Assembly (NCBI RefSeq): GCF_036971445.1 | Contig: NC_091472.1 | Coordinates: 75,702,001-75,736,577 of the forward strand | Direction of reading: 5' to 3' | DNA from: Narcine bancroftii | Taxonomy: Eukaryota | Length of the DNA: 34,577 bases | Shown: one piece after another, positions 1-34,577 of the stretch | How positions within the stretch are numbered: position 1 is the stretch's first letter | Layout of the letters: each line of letters starts with the position of its first letter | Made by a program: the position numbers and the translations under genes | The notes under the pieces: model-generated | The model's input: only the letters and a program-made list of their open reading frames with translations | Told to the model about the DNA's origin: nothing | Databases searched by the model: none

Positions 1-487
1 GTCTTCTGAGTTTATCTGATCTGCAGTGCTGTACGACTTGATCCAATAATTGGTTGTCCAAATCAGCTGGCATGTAATTGCATCCAACAGCTAGCTGGCG
101 TAGTCTCGTCACGTATTGAGCAATTGTCTGGCCATCTTCTTGTCTCGTTCTCCGAAACAAATGGCGTTGAAATGTAGCATTTGGTGTCACTACATAGTGT
201 GCATTTAATGCTTCTACCGCTTTTTGGTACTCATCCTTTCTTCCAGTATTCAAAAGTGTCTTAAATGTTTCCCGAACTGCGGGACCAGCAGTGAAAAGAA
301 GTAACGCCCTTCTCTGCGCTTTTTGTTGAACTGTACCGGTATCTAGAAATAGGCCACGACTGTCGGCGTAGGATTCAAATTCTTCCAGCCATGCCTTCCA
401 CTTCACACTTACAGTGCTTGCACCACCCGTTGGGTCAAAATGAGCAATTCCACTATGTGTTAGAAAGTTACCGTCTTCCCCAGCCAT
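1..487 (-). CDS. gag: Gypsy Gag(-Pol) polyprotein N-terminus, partial, uninterrupted for 162 codons
   Basis: Manual translation: MAGEDGNFLTHSGIAHFDPTGGASTVSVKWKAWLEEFESYADSRGL...RALLLFTAGPAVRETF...FQRHLFRRTRQEDGQTIAQYVTRLRQLAVGCNY...; typical Gypsy gag motifs. Absent from the ORF track because it runs off the window. Confidence 0.88.
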   Translation of the reverse strand, partial: MAGEDGNFLTHSGIAHFDPTGGASTVSVKWKAWLEEFESYADSRGLFLDTGTVQQKAQRRALLLFTAGPAVRETFKTLLNTGRKDEYQKAVEALNAHYVVTPNATFQRHLFRRTRQEDGQTIAQYVTRLRQLAVGCNYMPADLDNQLLDQVVQHCRSDKLRR

Positions 488-602
488 GAGGAAATATTCC
501 AGCCCCAAAAGTACTGAGTCAAAGAGAAAATTCTTATCACCCTGAAGTTCTCTGTAATCCTCTGTAATCTTCTTTAGTCTTTAATTTTCTTCAAGCTTCT
601 TT

Positions 603-616
603 CATCCTCGTCGCCA
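603..616 (-). promoter_or_regulatory. Primer binding site complementary to the tRNA-Ser(GCU) 3' end
   Basis: TGGCGACGAGGATG one nt after the LTR terminal CA; complementary to ...CAUCCUCGUCGCCA of vertebrate tRNA-Ser(GCU). Confidence 0.85.
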
Positions 617-617
617 A

Positions 618-817
618 TGTCACATTTGTGGCCCGAAATGTGAAGTTAATAAAACATCAAACACAAGTTTTATCAGGTAAACTTCTCAGTGTCTTTATTC
701 TCCAGTTTCCTTTGTTCTCCTGCTTGTGCTCTTATCTCTCTCTCATACCACGTGACTTCCGGTACATCTCATACATATTCATTATCAAGACACCATTCCT
801 GATGCCGAGTCATAACA
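618..817 (-). repeat. 5' LTR (200 bp) of the Gypsy element
   Basis: TG...CA termini with imperfect inverted ends, internal AATAAA, adjacent PBS. The outer boundary cannot be checked against a second LTR. Confidence 0.75.
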
Positions 818-3039: not shown

Positions 3040-5156
3040 ACACCAGTCAGAAGGCAGGTAGCTGGGTGACTGTTAGGAGAGAGAAGGGGATTAGGCAATC
3101 CCCTCAACAATAAGTATACAGTTTTGGAAACTGATGGTGGGGATGGGAGAGATCTACCAGTAGTGGTCAGGTCTATGGCACGGAGTCTGGTTCTTCGGCA
3201 AAGAAGGGAAGAGGGGAGAGGAGGAGAGTGATAATGATTGGGTATTCAAAAGTCATGCAAACAGATAGGATATTCTGTGAACAGGAATGAGACTTGCAGA
3301 TGGTATGTTGCCACCCAGGTGTCAGGGTCAGGGACATCTCTGATGAAGACCACAGCATTCACAAGCAGGAAGGTGAGCAGCCAGATATCGTGGTCCACGT
3401 TGGTACCAATGACACAGGAGCAGGGATAAGGTCCTGATAAGGGAATATAGGGATTGTGGCCACACCCCAATGAGGGAAGGAATAGGAAGTTGTAATTAAT
3501 GAATGCATGGCTGAAAGAGTTGGAGCAGGACAGAGGTTGAGATTTGTGGATCATTGGAATCTCTGGGAAAGTCTGACCTGTACAAAAAGGACGGGCTGCA
3601 TCTGAACTGAAGAGGAACCAATATCCTGGTGGGAAGGTTTGCTAGAGCAGTTGGAGAGAGTTTAAATTACTTTGGCAGGGGAATGGGAATCTAAGTGAGT
3701 GAAAAGAATAGGGCAGAAGGTGGAAAGATTGATACATTGTGTTGTGGGTTTGTGGGGAAGGACAGGCTGGGGAAGAAGCATAAATGTGGTCAGTTGGAGA
3801 ATTTGAAATATGTCTATTTCGTTGCATGGAGTATTACGAACAAAGGAGATGAATTGAAACCTTGGATCAGGACATGGAATTGCAATGCTATAATTGTTAC
3901 AGAAACTTAGTTGACAGAAGGACAGGATTGGCTGATGCAGGCACTGGGGTTTGTGTATTTTAAAAGGGATAGGATGGGAGGTAAAGGGAGGGTGAGGGGG
4001 TTGGTGCAGGAAGTAGCATTACTGGTCAGGGATAGTATCACGGCTGTAGAAAGGGAAGATACTGTAGAGGGAGTGTCCGCTAAGGCAGTGTGGGTGGAAG
4101 AATACAATAGCACAGAAAACAGGCCATTTGGCCCTTCTATTCTGTGCCAAAACATCATTCCACTAGTCCCGCTGACCTACTCGCACTCCATAACCCTCCA
4201 GACAACTCCCATCCATGTACCTATCCAACTTATTCTTAAAACTTAAGACTGAGCCTGCATTTACCTCGTCAGGTGGCAGCTTGTTCCACACTCCCACCAT
4301 TCTGAGTACTGTACTGGAAGCAGCCCTGAGGCCCCCAAATACACCTCAGGACACTAAGGAACAGATAGGCAGGCAGATTTTGGAATGGTGCAGAAAAATC
4401 AGGTTGCTGTCGTGGGAAACTTCAACTGGGGCAGAATTTGTCAGTTGTGTCCAAGAAGGATTCCTGACACAGTAATGTGGATTAGCCACTGGAAGAGAGG
4501 CCTTACTGGATCTAGTACTGGGTAAAGAACCTGGTCAGGTGACAGATCTCTCAGTGGGGGAGCATTTCAGACGTAGTGACCACAATGCTCTGAACTTTAA
4601 CATAGTTATGGACAAGGATAAAAACAGGCAGAATGGAAAAAGTGTTTAATTAAGGAAGGGTTAATTACGATAGGCAAGAACTGGGTTGGGGGGAAGTAAA
4701 TTGGGAACAGATGCTCATGAAAGAGCACTGAAGTAATGTGGAGAAAGTTTAAGGACCACTTGTATGGGGTTCTGGAGAGGTTTGTCCCACTGAGAAAAAC
4801 AAAAAAAGGTAGGAAAGGGGAACTGCAGTTGACAAAGAGGAAGAAGGAAGCATGCATGATATTTAGAAAGAAAAAACAGGAAAGGATCATGGGAATTATA
4901 TCATATCCAGGAAGGAACTTGAGAAAGGAATTAGGAGTGCTTGAAGCAGCCATGAGAAGGCCTTGGCAAGTAGGATGAAGGAGAGTCCCAAGGCCATCTA
5001 TGCGTATGTGACGAACACAAGGATGAGGGGTAGGGCTGCTTAAGGATAAAGGAGGCAACATGTGCCTGGAGGCGGAGGTCCTAAATGAATACTTTGCTTC
5101 AGTATTCACCAGAGAAAAGGACCTTGGTCAAGATGAGATCAGAATTGAACAAGCTT
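3040..5156 (+). mobile_element. CR1 LINE, 5' part (degenerate ORF1 esterase and ORF2 AP endonuclease)
   Basis: IVVHVGTND and DGLHLN SGNH-esterase motifs; SITNKGDEL, VTET, RPPN, LLDLVL, SDH endonuclease motifs; LNEYFASVFT. Resumes at 10184. Confidence 0.85.
4100..4303 (-). mobile_element. 5'-truncated CR1 3' end nested in the CR1 endonuclease region
   Basis: Reverse strand encodes VGVWNKLPPDEVNAGSVLSFKNKLDRYMD followed by the GGGCCAAATGGCCTGTTT tail; splits the host between VWVE and RPPN. Confidence 0.75.
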
Positions 5157-5667
5157 GAAAAATATATAAAAATTTAGTAAAGATATTCATCTTAATAACA
5201 TTAATGTGTCCAATTAATGTCATTGAAAGAGGGGACCACAGTGTCAAGGACTTCACAACATGACTCATTAAGGTAAGAATTTTTTCTTTCAACAAATTAT
5301 TGAATTTCTTAATAATAGTACCCATTTTTATTCCCAAATTCTTTTTTGTTTCATTGGATTCTATCATATCTTCTTTTATATGGAAAAATAAATGCCCTGT
5401 CTTAAGAAATCTTCCTTCAAAATATTAAAAAGAATGGGGCTTGGCATTACCTAACTTTAGATTTTATTATTGGGCAGCTAATGTTAGATACATTACTTTT
5501 TGATTCATCACAAGGAAAATTTAGGTGCATCAAGTTGGATTAATTTAGAAATTAAATCTACCGAAAAATATTCTCCTTTCAATAGTTGAACCACCTTTAC
5601 CTTTTTTGGCATCCAAATTAATTGATAATTTTGTTGCTAGACATCTATTGAGAATCTGGTTTCAATT

Positions 5668-7855
5668 TTTTTTTAAATTTTAGTTCTCACACTATGAACC
5701 ATATCAAACAAAATATGTACAAACGTTTCTCATTAAATATACAGTGACAATTTCCCCCCTTCCCACCCCCCTCCAAAACCAATAAATATTAAACATATAT
5801 AATACAATAAAACCATAAAACAACGTCTTCACACAAGGGAAAAACAAACAAGAAAAATGTGTCATCTACTTTTACACACTAAATCTAATCGTTTTGCTTT
5901 TATCATTTTCGGGGATGGAGGTCCGAGGCAAGCACTCTCTCTTATGTTCCATGTATGGTTCCCAAATTTGTTCAAACAATGTAACTTTATTTTTTAAATT
6001 ATATGTTATTTTTTCCAATGGAATACATTTATTCATTTCCATGTACCATTGCTGTATTCTCAGGCTCTCTTCCATTTTCCAAGTTGACATTATACATTTT
6101 TTTACTACTGCTAAGACTATCATAATGAATCTTTTTTAATCCAATTTAAGGCCTAATTCTTTACTTATGTTACTTAAAAGAAAGATCTCTGGATTTTTTG
6201 GTATGTTATTTTTTTGTGATTTTATTTAATATCTGATTTAATCTTCCCAAAACTTTTTCACTTTCTCACATGCCCAAATTGCATGTATTGTTGTTCCCAT
6301 TTCATTTTTACAGCAAAAACATCTATCTGATATTGTTGGATCCCATTCTTTTAATTTTTGAGAAGTGATATATAACCTGTGTAAGTAATTATACTGTATC
6401 ACGCGTAACCTTGTATTTATTGTATTCTTCATAGTTCCAGAATATAACTTTTACCATGTTTCATTCTTTATATTTAAGTCCTTTTCCCACTTTTGTTTGG
6501 GTTTATAGCTTATTTTCCTTACCTTCCATCTTAATTTACATATTTGTTATTAATCTTTTATTTATCATTGTATCTGTAATCACATATTCAAAGCTGCTTC
6601 CTTCTGGTAATCTCAATCTGTTTCCCAATTTATCCTTTAAATAAGCTTTCAGTTGATGATATGCAAACATTGAACCATGAGTTATCCCATATTTGTCCTT
6701 CAACTGTTCAAATGTTAATAAATTATTTCCCAAAAAACAATTTTCTATTCTCTTGATTCCTTTTCTCTCCCATTCTCTAAAGGAAAGGTTATCTATTGTG
6801 AAAGGGATTAGTGGATTTTGCGTCAATAGCATTTTTGGTATTTGGTAAATCATTTTTTGCCTTTCTACGTCTATCTTCTTCCATATATTAAGTAAATGAT
6901 GCAATACCAGTGAGCTGTTATATTAACTATATAACCATTTACGGAGCGAAAACCGGCCATTTCGGCTTTTCGAGTCCACACCAGCTTTTCATCCCATTTT
7001 TAAAGTACCTTTTTATCTAGTTCTATCTTAGTCCAGTCTGGTTTTTCTCTCATCTGGTAAAAATTTGATAAGTACCTTAATTGTGCGGCTCTGTAATAAT
7101 TTCTGAAGTTTGGTAACTCTAAACCACCTTGGTTATACCTCTCTGTTAATTTATCTAGCGCTACCCTTGGCTTCTCCCTTTCCACAAGAATGTCCTTATT
7201 ATTCTCCTTAGTTCAACAAAGAATTTCCCTATTAAGGGAAATTCGTAAAACATCTAAAAAAAGATTGGATACCTAAAATTTAACTACTGATGATAATTAT
7301 TATCTTGAACTGAAGGCTTAAAAAAAAGGAATTATTTAAAATAATTATTGTATCCTTGAAATAAGTATTGTATCCTTGAGAACACATTCATTTTAATGCA
7401 GTTCACCATCCCTATCAACGTTAGCGGTAATTCTTTCCAATGTTTTAAGTCTTCCTGTAATTTCTTTATTAATGGCTGATAATTTAGTTTGTACAAGTGG
7501 CTTAAGTTATTGTCTAACCTGATATCAGATTGCTTGTGCTTGCCATTTAAATAGTGATTCTTTTTTAAGTTCTGTATAATCCGCATTACTCATTGGCATC
7601 ACTTCACTTTTATTTGCGTTGACCTTATACCCCGATATTTCTCCATATTCCTTCAATTTCTTATGTAGTTCTTTTATTGATATATTTGGTTCTGTTAAGT
7701 ATACTATGATGTCATCTGCAAATACACTGATTTTATACACCTTCTCCTTTATTTTTATCCCTTTTATTTTATTTTCTTATCAGCTCTGCCACTGGATCTA
7801 TTGCTAAAGCGAACAATGAGGGAGATAAATGGACATCCCTGCCTAGTTGATCTAC
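5668..7855 (-). mobile_element. L1-clade LINE (L1-B), 5'-truncated within RT, nested in L1-A
   Basis: 19-bp TSD TGAGAATCTGGTTTCAATT at 5649-5667 and 7856-7874; poly(A) remnant; RQGCP, FADD, GGLELPNF, CFCC...HAIWAC motifs; G-rich 3' UTR near 5754-5773. Confidence 0.9.
6924..6982 (-). mobile_element. About 60-bp CR1 3' tail inserted in L1-B
   Basis: GGTGTGGACTCGAAAAGCCGAAATGGCC...TGGTTATATAGTTA; same family as 9044-9102 (7 differences in 59 nt). Confidence 0.65.
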
Positions 7856-23400: not shown

Positions 23401-23741
23401 CCCTTGTTTATCAAAAAAATAGAATACATTGTGACGGCGCACATACTCGTGGTGAACTGGCCCCACTTGTACCGCCGCGTGGTAGGGCAGCCCCGAGAAG
23501 ATGGCGCCGTCGGGGGACCTCCTTGCCTAGTGGCTTGAACCCAGCACACGCCTCAGGGAGGCATGATGACATCACCACTCGCGCAGGGATGGAGCTCAGT
23601 CTTCCCTTAAAGAGGCACGCGCTAGATTAGAAATAAACAGTCATTGAGAGCTTCCAACGTGGTGGATGTGAGTCTCTTTCATCGTAGCTACCGCTACATT
23701 GGTGTCCTTGACGAGTCCAGACATATTTCTGGCCTCTCAGT

Positions 23742-26700
23742 ATAGATCCCGCAGAGATCAATGCAGTCGCGGTGAAACTGCCCCTCTTCTGGACACATCG
23801 CCCATGTACGTGGTTCAGGCAGGTGGAAGCGCAGTTTCGCCGTCGAAACATTTCTTCAGATGCCACGATATTTTACCACGTCGTGAGCATACTCGACAAG
23901 GAGACCGTAGCCAGGGTGGACAAGCTCATCCACAACCCGCTGGAAGCCAGTAAATAGCCCACCCTCAAGAACCTCCTCCTCGGCACCGGAATAGCGCACC
24001 TCCAGACTCCTGTACCTGGATGGGTTGGGAGACAGAACCCCATCAGCCCAAATGGATGAGATGCTGATGCTGGCAGAGAATTATGCTGTGGTTCTTGTTC
24101 AGGCTGATCTTCCTCTAGCAAATGCCCAAAGACATACAGCTCCTGCTGGCGGATGAGGACTTCTCTGACCCATGGCGGTTGTGGCCCGCGCAAACACCTC
24201 TGGCAGACCAAGCAGGAGAACAAGGCCGCCCTCACCCAGATCACCCGCTCAGGGCCTAGTCGGCCGCAAGCGCCCCCCAAGCACAAGCCAGAGGAACACC
24301 ACCCCACATAAGTGCTTCTACCACCAACGCTGGGGGGCTCAAGCCCGTAAGTGCAGGCAGCCCTGTGCCTTTCAGGGAAATAACTCGGCCAGCCGCCACC
24401 ACGCGAACAGCCTCCTGCACGTTACCGACAAGTCCACTAGCCGATGTTTCTTATTGGACACTGGAGCGAAGCTGAGCGTTTTACCCCTAACTGCCTTTGA
24501 GACCCGCACCCAAGCACGGGGCCACACCGTACGGGCAGCCAATGGATCCGCCATCAAGACCTTCAGCACTCTGAGGACGCAGATCCAGATCGGGAAAGAC
24601 AAGTTCCGGTGGAGGTTCATGCTGGCCTCAGTGGGCACAGCGCTGTTGGGGGCCGACTTCTTCCTAGCGCACAGCCTGCTGGTGGACGTCAAGGGCAAAC
24701 GGTTAGTCAACGCCCGGACCTTTCAGTCCGTCTGCCTCGAAGCCACAGAAGTCTGCAAGCCGGAGATAGCTGCCATCAGCACTCCCAGGGACGAGTATTC
24801 CAGCACACTTGATGAATTCCCCTCCATCCTGCAGCCACAGTTCACCACCGCCATGCCTCAACATGGAGTCTACCATCACATCTCCACTAAGAGCCCCCCG
24901 CTGCATGCCAAGGCTAGGTGATTACCCCCAGAACATCTACAACTGGCCAAGGAAGAGTTCTCCCGCCTGCAGGTGCTGGGAATTGTCCGCAGGTCGAATA
25001 GTCCCTGGGTCTTACCCCTTCACTTGGTCCCCAAGACTTTCGGGGGCTGGCGCCCCTGAGGGGATTATAGTCACCTTAACGATGCGACCAATATTCCATT
25101 CCACATATCCAGGACTTCTTGGCAAACTTGCACGGCGCCCAGGTCTTCTCGAAAGTTGACCTGGTACGGGGCTACCATCAACTCCCGGTCCATCCTGAAG
25201 ACATCAGCAAGACCATGATCATCAGCCCGTTTCGACTGTTCGAAAATCTTGCAGATGCCCTTTGGATTAAAGAACGCAGCCCAAACTTTCCAGCACCAAA
25301 TGGAAGCGGTGGGCAGGGACCTGGACTTTGTGTTCAACTACCTCAATGATATCTTCATCGCCAGCCAAGACCACGACGAGCATAAGGTCCATCTCCATAC
25401 CCTGTTCACCCGCTTGGCAGAGTTTGGCCTCACGGTTAACGTGGCCAAGTGCCAGTTCGGCAGGCAGACATTTCAATTCCTGAGACACACCATCTCGGCG
25501 GCTGGAGCCGCCCCGGCACCAGAGAAGATCGCAATCATGCACCAGTTCCAGAAACGCACCACCCTCAAAGGCCGGCAGGAGTTTGTCTGCATGGTGAAAT
25601 TCTACCACTGGTTCATACCTGGGGCAGCCCGCATCATGCAGCCGTTATTCTCGCTGATCGCCGCTTAAGACAAGGTCCTGGTATGGTCAGATGAGGCAGA
25701 GGGCACTTTTGCCTCAACAAAAGATGCACTGGCGAGCACCACGCTATCGGCCCACCTGCGCCTAGAGGCCAACACCGCACTCTCGGTGGATACCTCAGCC
25801 ACGGCCGTTGGGGGCATCCTGGAGCAATGGATCGATGGCCAGTGACACTTGCTAGCCTTCTTCAGCAGGCTCCTCCGGCCCCTAGAACTCAAGTACAGCA
25901 CCTTCGACAGGGAGATCCTGGCCATCAGACATTTCCGGTACTTCCTGGAGGGCAAGCTGATCACTACGTTCACCGATCACAAGCCACTCATGCAAGCCCT
26001 CGCGATTGCTAAAGACCCCTGGTCGGCTCGCCAGCAGCAGCACCTATCCTACGTGTCGGAGTTCATGCCTGACATCTGGCACCGGGCAGGTAAAGACAAT
26101 GTTGTGGCTGATGCGCTTTCACGACCCGCAATCCACAACCTCACCCCCCAGCCTAAACTACACCCAGCTGATGCAGGCCCAGAGGGAGGATGTGGAAACA
26201 CAGGCCCTCCGCACCACCTTTACTGGGCTCCAACTCCAGAACATCCGTTTGCCATGCAGCCCAGACATGCTGATCTGCAACGTTTCCACCGGCTCGCCGC
26301 TCCCAGTAGTCCCGCCGCAGTGGAGGTCGCAGGCCTTCAGCATGGTCCACGACCTAGTCCACCCCTCGGTCAAGACATCAGTGTGGATGGAGGCAGAGCG
26401 GGTTTTGTGGCACGGGCTCAAGAAGCAGGTAGCCCAGATGCCGAGCAGCTGCACACAGTGCCAGGCCTCCAAAGTCCACCGTCACAAAAAAGGTCCCGAA
26501 CAGTTCGACTCTGCGGCCAAGAGGTTCCAGCATATACACGTAGACATTGTGGGCTCCCTGCCGGTGTCCAAGGAGACGCGCTACTTGCTGATAGTGGTCG
26601 ACCGAGCTACGAGGTGGCCAGAAGCCATCCCACTCAAGGACACTTCTGCCAAAACGTGTGCCAGGAACTTGCTCACTCAATGGATCACCAGGTTTGGAGT

Positions 26701-27345
26701 CCTGGTGCACATTACCAGCGACAGAGGCGCCCAATTCACATCCGCCCTCTGGGCACGTGGCGAGCCTTCTGGGGGTCAAGCTCCACCACACCACGGCGTA
26801 CCATTCTCAAGCAAACGGCCTGGTGGAGCGATTCCACCGGCACCTGAAGTCGGCCCTCATGGCCCGCCCCACCGGTCCCGGCTGAGTGGACGAATTGCCC
26901 TGGGTCCTGTTCGGCATCAGGACGGCCCCAAAGGAGGATCCGTGGGTATCATCCTCAGAGTTGGTTTACAGTGCGCCACTGTCCGGGGGCTCAGCAACCG
27001 ACAACCCAATCTTGTAGGCAGACCTCCACAGCAAGCTCGCCTCGCAAGCTCCCCCTCCCCACCACGGTAGCCGACCGTCCCGTCTGCCCAAGGAGCTGGA
27101 TGTGGCCAACTACATTTTCATCTGGCATGGCTCGCACAGTGCGTCCCTGCAGTGCCCTTATGAAGGCCCCTACAGAGTCCTGCAGCGATCTGGGAAGACT
27201 TTCACGTTGGACATTGGGGGTAAAAGCGAACTGTTCATGGTTGACCACCTCAAGGAGGTGCACTTGGACCTCAGTCAACCAATTCAGACAGCCCAGCCAA
27301 AACGCCGAGGCCAGCCGCCCAAGTGGCGGGACGCGTACTCCGGTT
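23742..27345 (+). pseudogene. gag-pol: gag-pol pseudogene (PR, RT, RNase H, integrase with GPY/F motif)
   Basis: LLDTGA; FSKVDLVRGYHQ, MPFGLKNA, YLND; FTDHKPL; HVDIVG, SDRGAQF, ERFHR, PYEGPY; several stops and frameshifts, ATA at the expected start. Confidence 0.9.
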
Positions 27346-27604
27346 CGGGGGGGGGGGGGGGGGTGTTGTGTGGCGGCGCACATACTCGTGGTGAACCGGC
27401 CCTGCTTGTACCGCCGTGTGGCGGGGCAGCCATGAGAAGATGGTGCCATCGGGTGTCCTCCTTGCCTTGTGACTTGAACCCAGCTCTCACCGCCCACGCA
27501 GAGGCAGAGCTCATGCTGCCCTTAAAGGGGCGCGCACGAGTTTTGAAATAAGCAGTCATTGAGAGCCTCCAACGTGGTGGTTGTGAGTCTCTTTTGTCAT
27601 AGCT

Positions 27605-27648
27605 TTCTCTTTGGCTTGGCTTCGCAGACGAAGATTTATGGAGGGGTA
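27605..27648 (-). mobile_element. 44-bp RTE LINE 3' tip inserted in the 3' LTR
   Basis: Matches the RTE tail at 29867 and 31349; 19-bp TSD 27586-27604 / 27649-27667 with 3 transitions. Confidence 0.85.
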
Positions 27649-27744
27649 AGTCTCTTTCATCGTAGCTACCGCTACAACATTTACATTGTCCTTGACTATC
27701 ATACGCCAGGTATTGAAGCAGGCATCAAAATCCAAGTCAGTTAC

Positions 27745-29366: not shown

Positions 29367-29866
29367 GCACAGTGTGACTGCCCATTTGTTTTAAGCATCA
29401 CTGACATTGCCTGTAGCTAATTCTAACTAAGCACAAACAAAACTGTCAGGAGCAAACCAATTTCAACAGAATAGTAACACAAGGGAAATTCCAATCATCT
29501 TACCACCTACTGAATTTTGAATATCCTTTCAATGGTAATTGTTTCTCTTCATTGCTTTGTCAGAAATGACCAGCTGAAATCTTTGTGTTGGCACTATAGC
29601 ATTAGCACCTCACTTACAATCAAATAGGTGATAATCATCCTGCCTCTGGCAACAGAACTACAAGAATATAAAATAAAAGCAAGATTTTCAAGTCTTCAAC
29701 AATACTGAAGCTCCAAATTTATAGACTGGACCAAATGAATAATCAATCAACGATAACCCAAGCGAAAATAATTTCACCTGAAAAACAGATTAAAATCTAC
29801 AATGAAAACCAAACGGAACAAAATGAGTAAAAATTCATTAATTCTTTTCACAACTAACAATAAATC

Positions 29867-30302
29867 CTTCTTTGGCTTGGCTTCGCGGACGAAGATTTAT
29901 GGAGGGGGTAAAAAGTCCACGTCAGCTGCAGGCTCGTTTGTGGCTGACAAGTCCGATGCGGGACAGGCAGACACGGTTGCAGGGGAAAATTGGTGGGTTG
30001 GGGTTGGGTGTTGGGTTTTTCCTCCTTTGCCTTTTGTCAGTGAGGTGGGCTCTGCGGTCTTCTTCAAAGGAGGTTGCTGCCCGCCAAACTGTGAGGCGCC
30101 AAGATGCACGGTTTGAGGCGATATCAGCCCACTGGCGGTGGTCAATGTGGCAGGCACCAAGAGATTTCTTTAGGCAGTCCTTGTACCTTTTCTTTGGTGC
30201 ACCTCTGTCACGGTGGCCAGTGGAGAGCTCGCCATATAACACGATCTTGGGAAGGCGATGGTCCTCCATTCTGGAGACGTGACCTACCCAGCACAGTTGG
30301 AT
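29867..30302 (-). mobile_element. RTE-clade LINE 3' fragment (copy A)
   Basis: WVGHVSRMEDHRLPKIVLYGELSTGHRDRGAPKKRYKDCLK...SRIGLVSHKRAC*; GAA-type tail. Confidence 0.93.
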
Positions 30303-30947: not shown

Positions 30948-31352
30948 TGGAGGACCATCGCCTTCCCAAGATCGTGTTATATGGCGAGCTCTCCACTGGC
31001 CACCGTGACAGAGGTGCACCAAAGAAAAGGTACAAGGACTGCCTAAAGAAATCTCTTGGTGCCTGCCACATTGACCACCGCCAGTGGGCTGATATCGCCT
31101 CAAACCGTGCATCTTGGCGCCTCACAGTTTGGCGGGCAGCAACCTCCTTTGAAGAAGACCGCAGAGCCCACCTCACTGACAAAAGGCAAAGGAGGAAAAA
31201 CCCAACACCCAACCCCAACCCACCAATTTTCCCCTGCAACCGTGTCTGCCTGTCCCGCATCGGACTTGTCAGCCACAAACGAGCCTGCAGCTGACGTGGA
31301 CTTTTTACCCCCTCCATAAATCTTCGTCCGCGAAGCCAAGCCAAAGAAGAAG
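30948..31352 (+). mobile_element. RTE-clade LINE 3' fragment (copy B)
   Basis: Reverse complement of 29867-30268; overlapping translations identical in several frames of the ORF track. Confidence 0.93.
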
Positions 31353-31696
31353 TTTTAGTCTACTGGTATCTTAAAAGCAATGCAAAGACCCTTAAAACAT
31401 GCCTCACCATGAGTTGTGTGTTATTTCAAACAAAAACATTTTGCTTTAACACAAAATGCTACTTTTCATTTTTTTTACTAAAAGCAGCAACAGACCACCC
31501 ACTCAAGATACAATGTTCCCAAAACTAGGTACAGTCATATGAGGGAGGGAAGGACTTCAGCAGAAAGACAGGAGAATTTGCATTTGTACTTGTGCTAAAA
31601 ATGCAAGGAAAAACCAAATGTTCAGATTCATTTAGGATCCCACTAAATAGCAAGGTCACAGTAATGTTACAGCACAAGACAAGACCATTCAGTGCC

Positions 31697-34346
31697 TGAT
31701 GCACCATCAATGATCACAAAAGATTGAAGTTGTAAAATTGATAGGCTTTTATTAACTTCATACTGGATCAGCCATCAACTGGAATGGGGAGCATGCAGAA
31801 GGATAGGAGTAAAATTGGCTTCAGGCAGTGTGTCCAGCCGGCAGCACCCAATCATAGCATAAAAGTGGTTTACCATATTCACCCCTCCTTTTTAAGAAGA
31901 GTCCTGCGGGGTGAGAAAAACAATATGAAACAAATATACATATACAAATATACACTTTACAGATTAAGTTTGTCAGGGGGGTCTCCTTTGCCGCAGCGAA
32001 CGATGTGATAATGTTTGAGGCACTGCTGTAGCACCCTGAGCAACTTATGGGTTGGACTGTCATGACGATTGCAGTTTGTCGAGGGGAGGTGAAGACAGTT
32101 GAGGGGATAAGGGAGTGTGGTGCTGGTGCATCATGGGTAGAGAGTGGTCAGCTGCAGGCTCAGGGACCCTAAGGTAGCAGCAGGAGGGGGAAGGGGGGAA
32201 GGAAGTGTCTGTTGGTGGTCAGTGGTGATCGGAGGAGCACCGGATGATGATCCTGGATCATGACTGTGTCTTCGCGCCCATCAAGGAAGACAACATAGGC
32301 ATACCGGGGTTTAGCGTGGAGGAGGCGGACCTCTCAATCAGTGGATCAGTCTTAGATTGCCTGGTTTCAAAGTACAACCGGTCCTGGGGAGGTAAGCCCG
32401 GAGGGCAGCGTAGTCCCTGACACGGACTTCCTAGGGAAAGCAAACATCTGTTCATGAAGTGTGTTGTTAGTGGCCACACATAAAAGTGACCTGATGGAGT
32501 GGAGTGCGTCTGGGAGGACTTCTTGCCATTGGGAAATGCCAGGAGAACAGTCTTCCAGACCAAGGCATTCTCCCTTTCCAGTTGCCCATTCCCTCTCGGG
32601 TTGTAGTTGGTGGTCCTGCTCATGGCGATGCCCCTGGTCAGCAGGTACTGACTGCCACAGCTTATCACTCATGTATAAGGTCCCCCGGTCACTGTGGATG
32701 AAGCCAGGGTACCCATAGAGTGTGAAGATATTGTAGAGTGCCTTGATAACTGTGGCCATAGTCACGTCTGGGCAGGGAATGGCGAAAGGCAAACCTGAGT
32801 ATTTGTCAATGATTATAAGGAAGTAAACATTCTGGTTGAAGAAGGAGAGAGGCCCCTTGAAATCAATGCTTAAGTGCTCTAAGGGGTGGGTAGCTTTGAT
32901 CAGGTGCACTTTATCCGGTCAGTAGAATTGCGGTTTGCATTTGGTCAGATATGGCAGTTTTCAGTCACTGTCTAGACTTCCTCGACGGAGTATGATAGGT
33001 TTTGAGCTTTGACAAAATGGAAAAACCTACTCACTCCAGGGTAATAGAGGTTATTATGGAGGGTCTGCAGTCTGTCCATCTGGACACTGGCACAAGTCCA
33101 ACAGAATAGAGCATCCAGGGGTTCGTTAAGTTTGCCAGGCTGATTGAGGATATTGTAGTTGTAAGTGGACAGTTCAATTCTTCACCTGAGGATCTTATTG
33201 TTCTTGATTTTGCCCCTCTGCTTATTATTAAACATGAATCCGTCCGCTCTCTGATCCAAGAGGTGAGTGAATCGTTTTCCGGCGAGGTAGTGGGTATGCT
33301 GCCTCCAGAATGGCCTGGGCTTCCATCTCAACGAAGAGTGGCGAATTTCATGGCCCTGAAGGGTGTGTGAGAACATGGCGACAGGTCTGACTGTGTGGCA
33401 GCCAGGGCAAAGTCGAACACAGCGCTCTCCCCTTGGAACGGTGTGGACTCATCTATAGCATGCATGGTTGCCTTAGCGATGTCGTGCTTGATACGGTCAA
33501 ACACATCTTGGGCCTCTGCCAGCAGGGGAAACGTGTCCGCATGGTTGGGGACACATTCAGCGTAATATGAGAAGAACCCGAGGCATCTCTTCAGTGCTTT
33601 GTGGGTATGTGGGAGAGGTAGCTCCGTAGCAGACGTATGCGGTCAGGATCAAGCCCAATGACGCTGTTCTCAACCACGCAGCCAAAGATGGCTAGTAGTG
33701 CTGTCCGGAACACACATTTGTCCTTGTTATAAGTTAGGTTCAGGCATTTTGCTGACTGGAGGAATTTACAGAGATTTGCATCGTGATTTTGCAGGTTGTG
33801 GCCGCAGATGGTCATACTATCAAGGTATGGGAAAGTGCCCTGTAATTTATAAAGGTCCTCCGTGCGGCCCATCTCCCACTGGAAAACGGAGACCCAGTTG
33901 GTGATGCCAAAAAGGTCCCAGAGAAAGTGATAGAGGCAGCCATCACAGCCTTACAGTCACATACTCTGTATAGGTTCCAGAGGGCCCGCAGGTACTCAGT
34001 GCTTGACTTACCAGGTTGCTGCTTTCTGGTGGCCAGGAGGTGCCTGGCGTAGGCTTCATTTATTTTCTTGCAATACTGGGCCTTCAGAATTTCCATGGCC
34101 ACCAGGTATGAGCTGGTGTCACTGATCAACAGATACTAGGGGAATGACTCATGAGAAGAGTAGCTTCAGTCGGTTAGCATCTGTGGTGATAACGCCTACG
34201 GTCACTGCCAGAAAGTCTTCAAAACAGCATAGCCAGAGTTCCAACATGTTCAGGGCATCGGATGATCAACAGTCAATGTTGAGCTTCTCAGATTTCAGGA
34301 ACTGCTGCATTTTCTTGAAAATTTATAGTTAATAAAATTTATGCAC
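31697..34346 (-). mobile_element. Degenerate Gypsy LTR retrotransposon, internally deleted; 5' LTR interrupted after 8 bp
   Basis: 3' LTR 31697-31877, PPT AAAAAGGAGGGGTGAA at 31878-31893; integrase SIDFKGPL and IHSDRG; RNase H HYLAGKRFT; RT FGITN and FPYLDS; gag from ATG 34310 (MQQFLKSEKL..., INEAYARHLLATRKQQPG); TTATGCAC at 34339-34346 matches the LTR end TGATGCAC. Confidence 0.9.
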
Positions 34347-34577
34347 TGTAGCAGCCCACGAACCAAGTCACAACCCGGCTCACAAAATGGCCAGCTAACA
34401 GAGCGATCGCAAGGGCCCCACAGGGACCAACAGCCGTCGACCTGCATGACGTTTCGCACAGTGGGAAAGAGCAGGCAACGGCAGGAACGCTGGCCAGTCG
34501 GAGGCCGGTGCTGCGATGACAACACTCCTGTATTCAGAGGCAGGGTCTTAATATAAATAGAGGTGGCAGAACAATAA
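34347..34577. mobile_element. Different LTR inserted into the 5' LTR of the preceding element; runs off the right edge
   Basis: Begins TGTAGC exactly where similarity to the 31697 LTR stops; CpG-rich; TATA-like tract near 34548-34558. Confidence 0.65.

Follow-up and report, generated by a model that had tools for sequence, protein, structure and literature searches.

An old, broken retrotransposon in the window (the whole stretch of 34,577 nucleotides analysed here) is very probably a copy of a widespread, chromodomain-less clade of animal Gypsy elements in which the primer-binding site (PBS) pairs with an arm in the R region of the element's own LTR, and in which the cut-off 5′ end of the element's own RNA primes reverse transcription. 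Because the PBS pairs with the own LTR and hundreds of aberrant copies in this genome contain that stretch copied into DNA, the clade very likely primes with its own cut-off RNA. As far as sequence comparison can tell, its self-priming is real and general, a well-supported variant of the Tf1-type mechanism, very likely employing a primer of about 52 nt. What is new here is that the genome holds fossil priming intermediates.

LTRs, a 5-bp target-site duplication, a polypurine tract and the order gag-PR-RT-RH-IN identify the element as a Ty3/Gypsy LTR retrotransposon (Table 1). A large deletion has taken out the protease together with the end of gag and the first part of RT, leaving an internal region of about 2.5 kb as compared with about 3.9 kb in L017 and L031. 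When the sequence was read rightward past the window, as the original prediction had proposed, the true 5′ LTR was found just outside, at about 36457-36259 in extended window numbering, and its arm is one substitution off. The terminal CA of this LTR is mutated; in family copies the LTR end is CATCA, and one spacer base follows. Four bases from its 3′ end the LTR is split by a 1.9-kb insert flanked by a 4-bp duplication, which is probably a solo LTR from a different family; CA/CT microsatellite makes up about 1.6 kb of this insert (L001, oriented positions 4743-6653; window position 34347 onward).

Table 1. Features of the Gypsy element at the right end of the window, in window positions.
Feature	Position	Strand	Remark
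Right copy of 5-bp target-site duplication	31692..31696	(-)	identical 5 bases before the 5′ LTR, outside the window
3′ LTR, decayed, with internal deletion relative to family copies	31697..31877	(-)	
Poly(A) addition site, by homology	31731..31733	(-)	16 nt past AATAAA; from a family retrocopy (L186) and sister-family retrocopies
Predicted cut	between 5′-LTR equivalents of 31747 and 31746	(-)	position inferred from fossil junctions
LTR arm complementary to primer site (14 nt in the family)	31747..31757	(-)	AATAAA at 31753-31748
Initiator-like CCATTCC, candidate start site	31781..31787	(-)	suggested by the start mapped in the sister family
Polypurine tract	31878..31893	(-)	same purine run stands before most 3′ LTRs listed
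Integrase core remnant (Pfam rve)	32367..32918	(-)	relatives without chromodomain
RT and RNase H remnants, broken	32900..33950	(-)	
gag 5′ part, broken	33950..34310	(-)	ATG at 34310
Primer-binding site, 14 nt, not tRNA-type	34324..34337	(-)	complementary to LTR arm
Final 5′ LTR bases and 1-nt spacer	34338..34346	(-)	terminal CA mutated; spacer at 34338
3′ part of later 1.9-kb TG...CA insert splitting the 5′ LTR	34347..34577	(-)	

The two 11-mers on which the original prediction was built were both recovered, TTTTATTAACT at 34337-34327 (-) and AGTTAATAAAA at 31757-31747 (-), and they complement each other exactly. The window contains the 11-mer pattern three times, the shuffle mean being 0.04, and none of 100 shuffles reached three; the third match (644-654) lies inside an unrelated tRNA-Ser-primed element. 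Whereas the complementarity is real, the proposed length of 11 nt was too short, the duplex of the family being 14 bp. A census of the family with a gag/primer-site query, and therefore biased because the query contained the primer site, yielded 39 other copies, 36 of which match the 14-nt site of the window at 12 or more positions, while in 29 at least 12 of the 14 positions pair with the LTR of the same copy. The predicted lack of a tRNA PBS holds for the family, as a TGG site occurs in 0 of the 39 copies. Deletion of the primer site from the window copy was ruled out by reads of other family copies. When the PBS was screened against a partial set of 25 distinct tRNAs, exclusive of mitochondrial and other small RNAs, the best complement was 6-7 nt; a control site at window positions 617-600 gave a 14-nt match to tRNA-Ser(GCT).

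An unbiased set of 20 young sister-family loci was obtained by protein search. The 5′ end is present in 19 of them, and all of these combine a different arm with a matching site of 14-16 nt; 5-bp duplications are common among these loci. In metagenome data, 30 of 80 loci had a usable 5′ end, the other 50 being omitted for want of a usable gag 5′ end or LTR boundary. Perfect pairing over 11-18 positions was seen in 23 of the 30 (shuffle means 6.0-7.6, maxima up to 11) and 11 of 12 pairs in four more; for three no pairing partner was found. From related families we chose 18 as distinct arms after the pairing had been seen. They contain 17 different primer-site sequences (12-mers), each matching its own LTR. 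The covariation of the two arms, which had been put forward as a check, was borne out: 215 of 216 cognate pairs are Watson-Crick as opposed to a non-cognate mean of 8.4 of 12, and 0 of 100,000 permutations, in which the relatedness of the families is ignored, reach the observed pairing sum. Even the near-identical L048 and L049 differ by one compensatory change, and two families of the source genome have different arms, each of them matched.

The register of the pairing is equally strict. In 18 of 18 families the LTR ends in CA, followed by a 1-nt spacer; the duplex measures 12-18 bp and the loop 24-66 nt. Invariant positions are the AAA at the 3′ end of the arm and a C two bases beyond, so that the arm ends AAA|RC. 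Pair 10, ten bases from the predicted primer end, is G-C in all 18 families and is followed by A or T at position 11, and pair 13 is formed in 17 of the 18. AWTAAA is found in 12 arms, AATAAA in four, and AWTAAA is missing from the arms of six families. When a natural family copy is folded, the duplex arises in cis (z -3.1), and in the predicted folds further helices flank the duplex, differing among families. In L066, L073, L077, L094, L113 and L119 a pyrimidine tract plus CAG, resembling a splice acceptor, is located upstream of the arm inside the LTR; these tracts hint at possible splicing or trans-splicing within the primer region.

To place the arm on the RNA we used tailed retrocopies, recognised by the arm and a subsequent A-run (reversed controls, 0; 13 distinct loci). 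The sister-family locus L190 comprises R alone; it has a 17-bp duplication and an untemplated G and looks capped. It starts with the A of an initiator-like motif, 32 nt past TTAAA, 36 nt upstream of the arm and 52 nt before the predicted cut. L193, which has a 12-bp duplication, extends from within integrase to an A-run. A long A-run also closes L186, which belongs to the window's family; a target duplication was looked for at L186 and none was found. In all three the tail lies 16 nt past AATAAA. Therefore, the hexamer of the arm is a poly(A) signal in use, as had been supposed, and the arm is located in R, which means that the 3′ end of the RNA carries the arm too. The original prediction that transcription starts at or near AGTTAATAAAA was not borne out, because the sole mapped 5′ end, that of the young sister family, is 36 nt upstream of the arm and early-stopping primer copies of the sister family cluster at this upstream start; the mapped start is based on one retrocopy and the early-stop class, both of the sister family. 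Poly(A) matches that were set aside are L188 and L198 (ordinary LTRs), L194 (rearranged) and L199 (ambiguous). At L189, L191/L192 and L197 the copy extends from the first LTR base to the poly(A) site, where an A-run follows (U3-R-An).

With element RNA as the primer, a fraction of the cDNAs would be expected to retain a copy of it past the normal primer site. A junction pattern consisting of the LTR end and a copy of the own R retrieved 299 aberrant insertions in the genome (reversed control, 0), and no such junction is present in the 20 protein-selected sister-family loci. Since the pattern demanded at least 23 copied nt, short primers are invisible to it. We read the first 100 of the 299 in contig order. 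Most of them (81) extend to the LTR start. Among the complete palindromic units, 18 of 24 show a perfect 5-bp duplication, so that their insertion is the work of integrase; the class of 81 is silent on primer identity, because DNA fold-back of plus-strand strong-stop DNA explains it with any primer. The other 19 stop before the LTR start, 11 of them within -2 to +6 nt of the L190 start (binomial about 1e-9 against uniform stops; about 1e-7 with three same-junction loci collapsed); eight fall elsewhere, and two of the 19 reach well into U3. Many early-stop copies join internal sequence through microhomology, and in 16 of 16 scorable early stops the copied variant is the locus's own LTR variant. 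Seven loci open with U5 complement up to the predicted cut, followed by a fold-back and then spacer plus primer copy, five of them with a 5-bp duplication. The junction at the cut sits in a 3-nt microhomology and could have been chosen by the hairpin. Furthermore, 36 of 58 partial upstream pieces begin no more than 10 nt from the cut. The window's family contributes three fossil loci, of which one is a palindrome with duplication, one folds back at the cut and one is a short copy. L206, L223 and L250 have a full primer copy joined to one gag position by 9-10 nt of microhomology, with two LTR variants, which points either to a recurrent mis-transfer site or to an amplified derivative.

Taken together, covariation across families and fossil primer copies strongly support the self-priming that had been predicted. 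According to the scenario we propose, transcription by Pol II would begin at an initiator that precedes the arm (by 36 nt in the sister family), and the primer site would fold back onto the arm. RNase H may then cut directly past the arm, as in Tf1, to yield a capped primer of about 52 nt, of which presumably only the last 14-16 nt are paired. The strong-stop DNA would consist of spacer, U5 and about 15 nt of R, and would jump to the 3′ R. Plus-strand synthesis would copy the primer into the primer site, a step by which the arms would stay matched. At the 5′ LTR alone, AAUAAA would be buried in the duplex of site and arm, a masking of the poly(A) signal to which we give roughly even chances. 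It is important to note that a 52-nt primer implies a flap of about 36 nt at the second strand transfer, and that the model has no account of its loss in normal copies.

Alternative readings of the duplex have to be weighed. The primer might be element RNA that comes from the 3′ copy of R, or acts in trans from short capped and tailed R-only RNAs, in which case cutting of the template would not be required. The arm lies in R and hence at both RNA ends, an R-only tailed RNA did exist (L190), and 81 of 100 primer copies run on into U3. However, the early stops cluster at the start site with only two of 19 well into U3, the U5 complement ends at the cut in seven loci, the copied variant is that of the own LTR in 16 of 16, and the local fold makes the duplex in cis (z -3.1), so that we consider this route decidedly improbable. 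A short, Tf1-like primer in most families, with a start 10-11 nt before the cut and the upstream start as an alternative or family-specific one, is likewise unlikely, though it could draw on the constant G-C at pair 10 with A or T at 11, on an initiator-like CCAGTC 4 nt before the arm in the window's family and, as far as the available text describes them, on the alternative starts used by Tf2 (PMC5341516). Against it, pairing exceeds 11 nt in nearly all families (pair 13 in 17 of 18), and a distance of 52 nt separates the cut from both the sole mapped 5′ end and the early-stop class, although the junction pattern that retrieved the early stops was blind to short primers.

The duplex might also do no more than mask the 5′ poly(A) signal, with an unrecognised host RNA as primer and the palindromes as by-products of DNA fold-back. 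AWTAAA in 12 of 18 arms would fit, as would a tRNA screen confined to 25 distinct tRNAs, without mitochondrial or other small RNAs. Masking would leave unexplained 17 different primer-site 12-mers that each match their own LTR, an exact register with the LTR end that is needed for priming and not for masking, and copies that stop at the RNA start site; this reading is largely refuted and retains only the slightest probability.

The relatives retrieved with the integrase come from many animal groups and are polyproteins of about 1200 aa encoded by a single ORF, an organisation that we take to fit Cigr-1. Among the matches listed are clade proteins from rays, catsharks, corals, tunicates, insects, shrimp and nematodes; none of the 120 matches listed has a chromodomain, and no relatives were found in the viral contigs searched. 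Chromo and SH3_Tf2-1 domains were detected in 0 of seven full-length relatives, while the control P0140 was positive. In the RT/RNase H tree the clade including the window copy is held together at 100/100 and separated from the fish chromodomain-type, Mag-like, CsRn1-like and integrase-first rows; the last three labels were assigned by domain order and motifs. The careful tree comprises 28 of 74 extracted rows, is unrooted and includes no fungal references. The original prediction that the family is not Tf1/sushi-like is upheld by the domains and by the fact that the clade is not nested within the six fish chromodomain-type (sushi) rows. An independent origin does not follow, as a sister relationship of the clade and the sushi rows was not rejected (p-AU 0.4). 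A search of the source genome with SH3_Tf2-1 recovered mostly integrase-before-RT elements and one decayed sushi-like copy. L141-L149 and L152 form an abundant, decayed integrase-before-RT family that scores with SH3_Tf2-1 and is presumably Gmr1-like.

In the available portions of the literature, self-priming has been demonstrated by experiment for fission-yeast Tf1, and most other descriptions concern the Tf1/sushi group and the TAR Copia elements of plants. Tf1 is primed by the first 11 nt of its RNA, which RNase H releases (PMC7175516), a three-duplex fold is common to Tf1/sushi chromoviruses (PMC10085805, PMC4600332), and about half of the Tf1 cDNA retains a copy of the primer site at its 3′ end (PMC11042837), as the accessible text has it. 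Judged by these partial sources, the clade resembles Tf1, Tf2, Tj1 and Tf1/sushi elements in a primer site that adjoins the 5′ LTR, is complementary to the own R and involves no tRNA; it shares with Tf1 a primer copy kept at the cDNA end (PMC11042837), known for the clade from integrated copies, and in its predicted folds extra helices, which vary among families, flank the duplex. Unlike Tf1, with its first 11 nt, the clade starts 52 nt before the cut, as mapped in the sister family only, and its duplex, 12-18 bp long, mostly includes the poly(A) hexamer. In contrast to Tf1/sushi elements it lacks Chromo and SH3_Tf2-1 and forms a separate RT/RNase H clade. For Skipper, no LTR complementarity is reported in the available part of PMC5006619.

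Self-priming was predicted for plant Tcn1 (Gypsy) and TAR/Houba/Osr-1 (Copia) in the accessible part of PMC6317226, where, as here, the self-complementary primer site was inferred from sequence, and where TAR places the trait also outside chromoviruses; no overlap with a poly(A) signal is described there for these elements. Unlike our clade, Tcn1 and TAR are, according to that text, plant lineages, Tcn1 grouping with Tf1/sushi and TAR being Copia. By description, as far as the available text allows, the clade is similar to Cigr-1 or the unnamed MolGy/PolGy clade, animal Gypsy elements without chromodomain (PMC6238403, PMC8556966), and tunicate relatives are among its matches listed. The accessible text of these two papers contains no mention of primer sites, five supplementary files of PMC6238403 yielded no RT motifs, PMC2774666 has no matching term for the clade's name, and the available parts of PMC3601003 and PMC6934838 hold nothing on this clade. 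From tRNA-primed Gypsy elements of the Mag and CsRn1 types the clade differs in lacking a TGG-type site (0 of 39 copies). In the openly accessible literature searched, we found no description of self-priming in a chromodomain-less animal Gypsy clade, nor of fossil primer copies; a prior description of either is possible.

Self-priming here marks a clade that is spread over many animal groups, and its primer appears to be several times longer than that of Tf1 and carries the poly(A) signal. This offers one possible answer to two problems of LTR elements, tRNA-free priming and ignoring the 5′ poly(A) site, and such elements would also be without the site that tRNA fragments target. The search for fossil intermediates is a cheap test applicable to any assembly. 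A more far-reaching reading, which we advance tentatively and at somewhat less than even chances, would see an animal-wide lineage independent of Tf1/sushi, in which one duplex first conceals the 5′ poly(A) signal and later yields, by cleavage, a long capped primer; hundreds of integrated aberrant cDNAs would keep cap site, cut site and primer copy, so that assemblies by themselves might reveal priming mechanisms.

Other repeats share the window. Positions 1-781 (-) belong to a young Mag-like Gypsy element (L153) with a tRNA-Ser(GCT) primer site, whose LTR holds the same 11-mer at 644-654 and which has at least 150 close copies in the source genome. A Gypsy element with a TGG-type site, which we take to be CsRn1-like by its motifs, occupies 23430-27680 (+); its 3′ LTR is interrupted near 27603-27646 by another repeat. 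A 412-nt inverted repeat (29857-30268 and 30948-31359; 99% complementary, spacing 679 nt) has the appearance of a common repeat present in two young copies.
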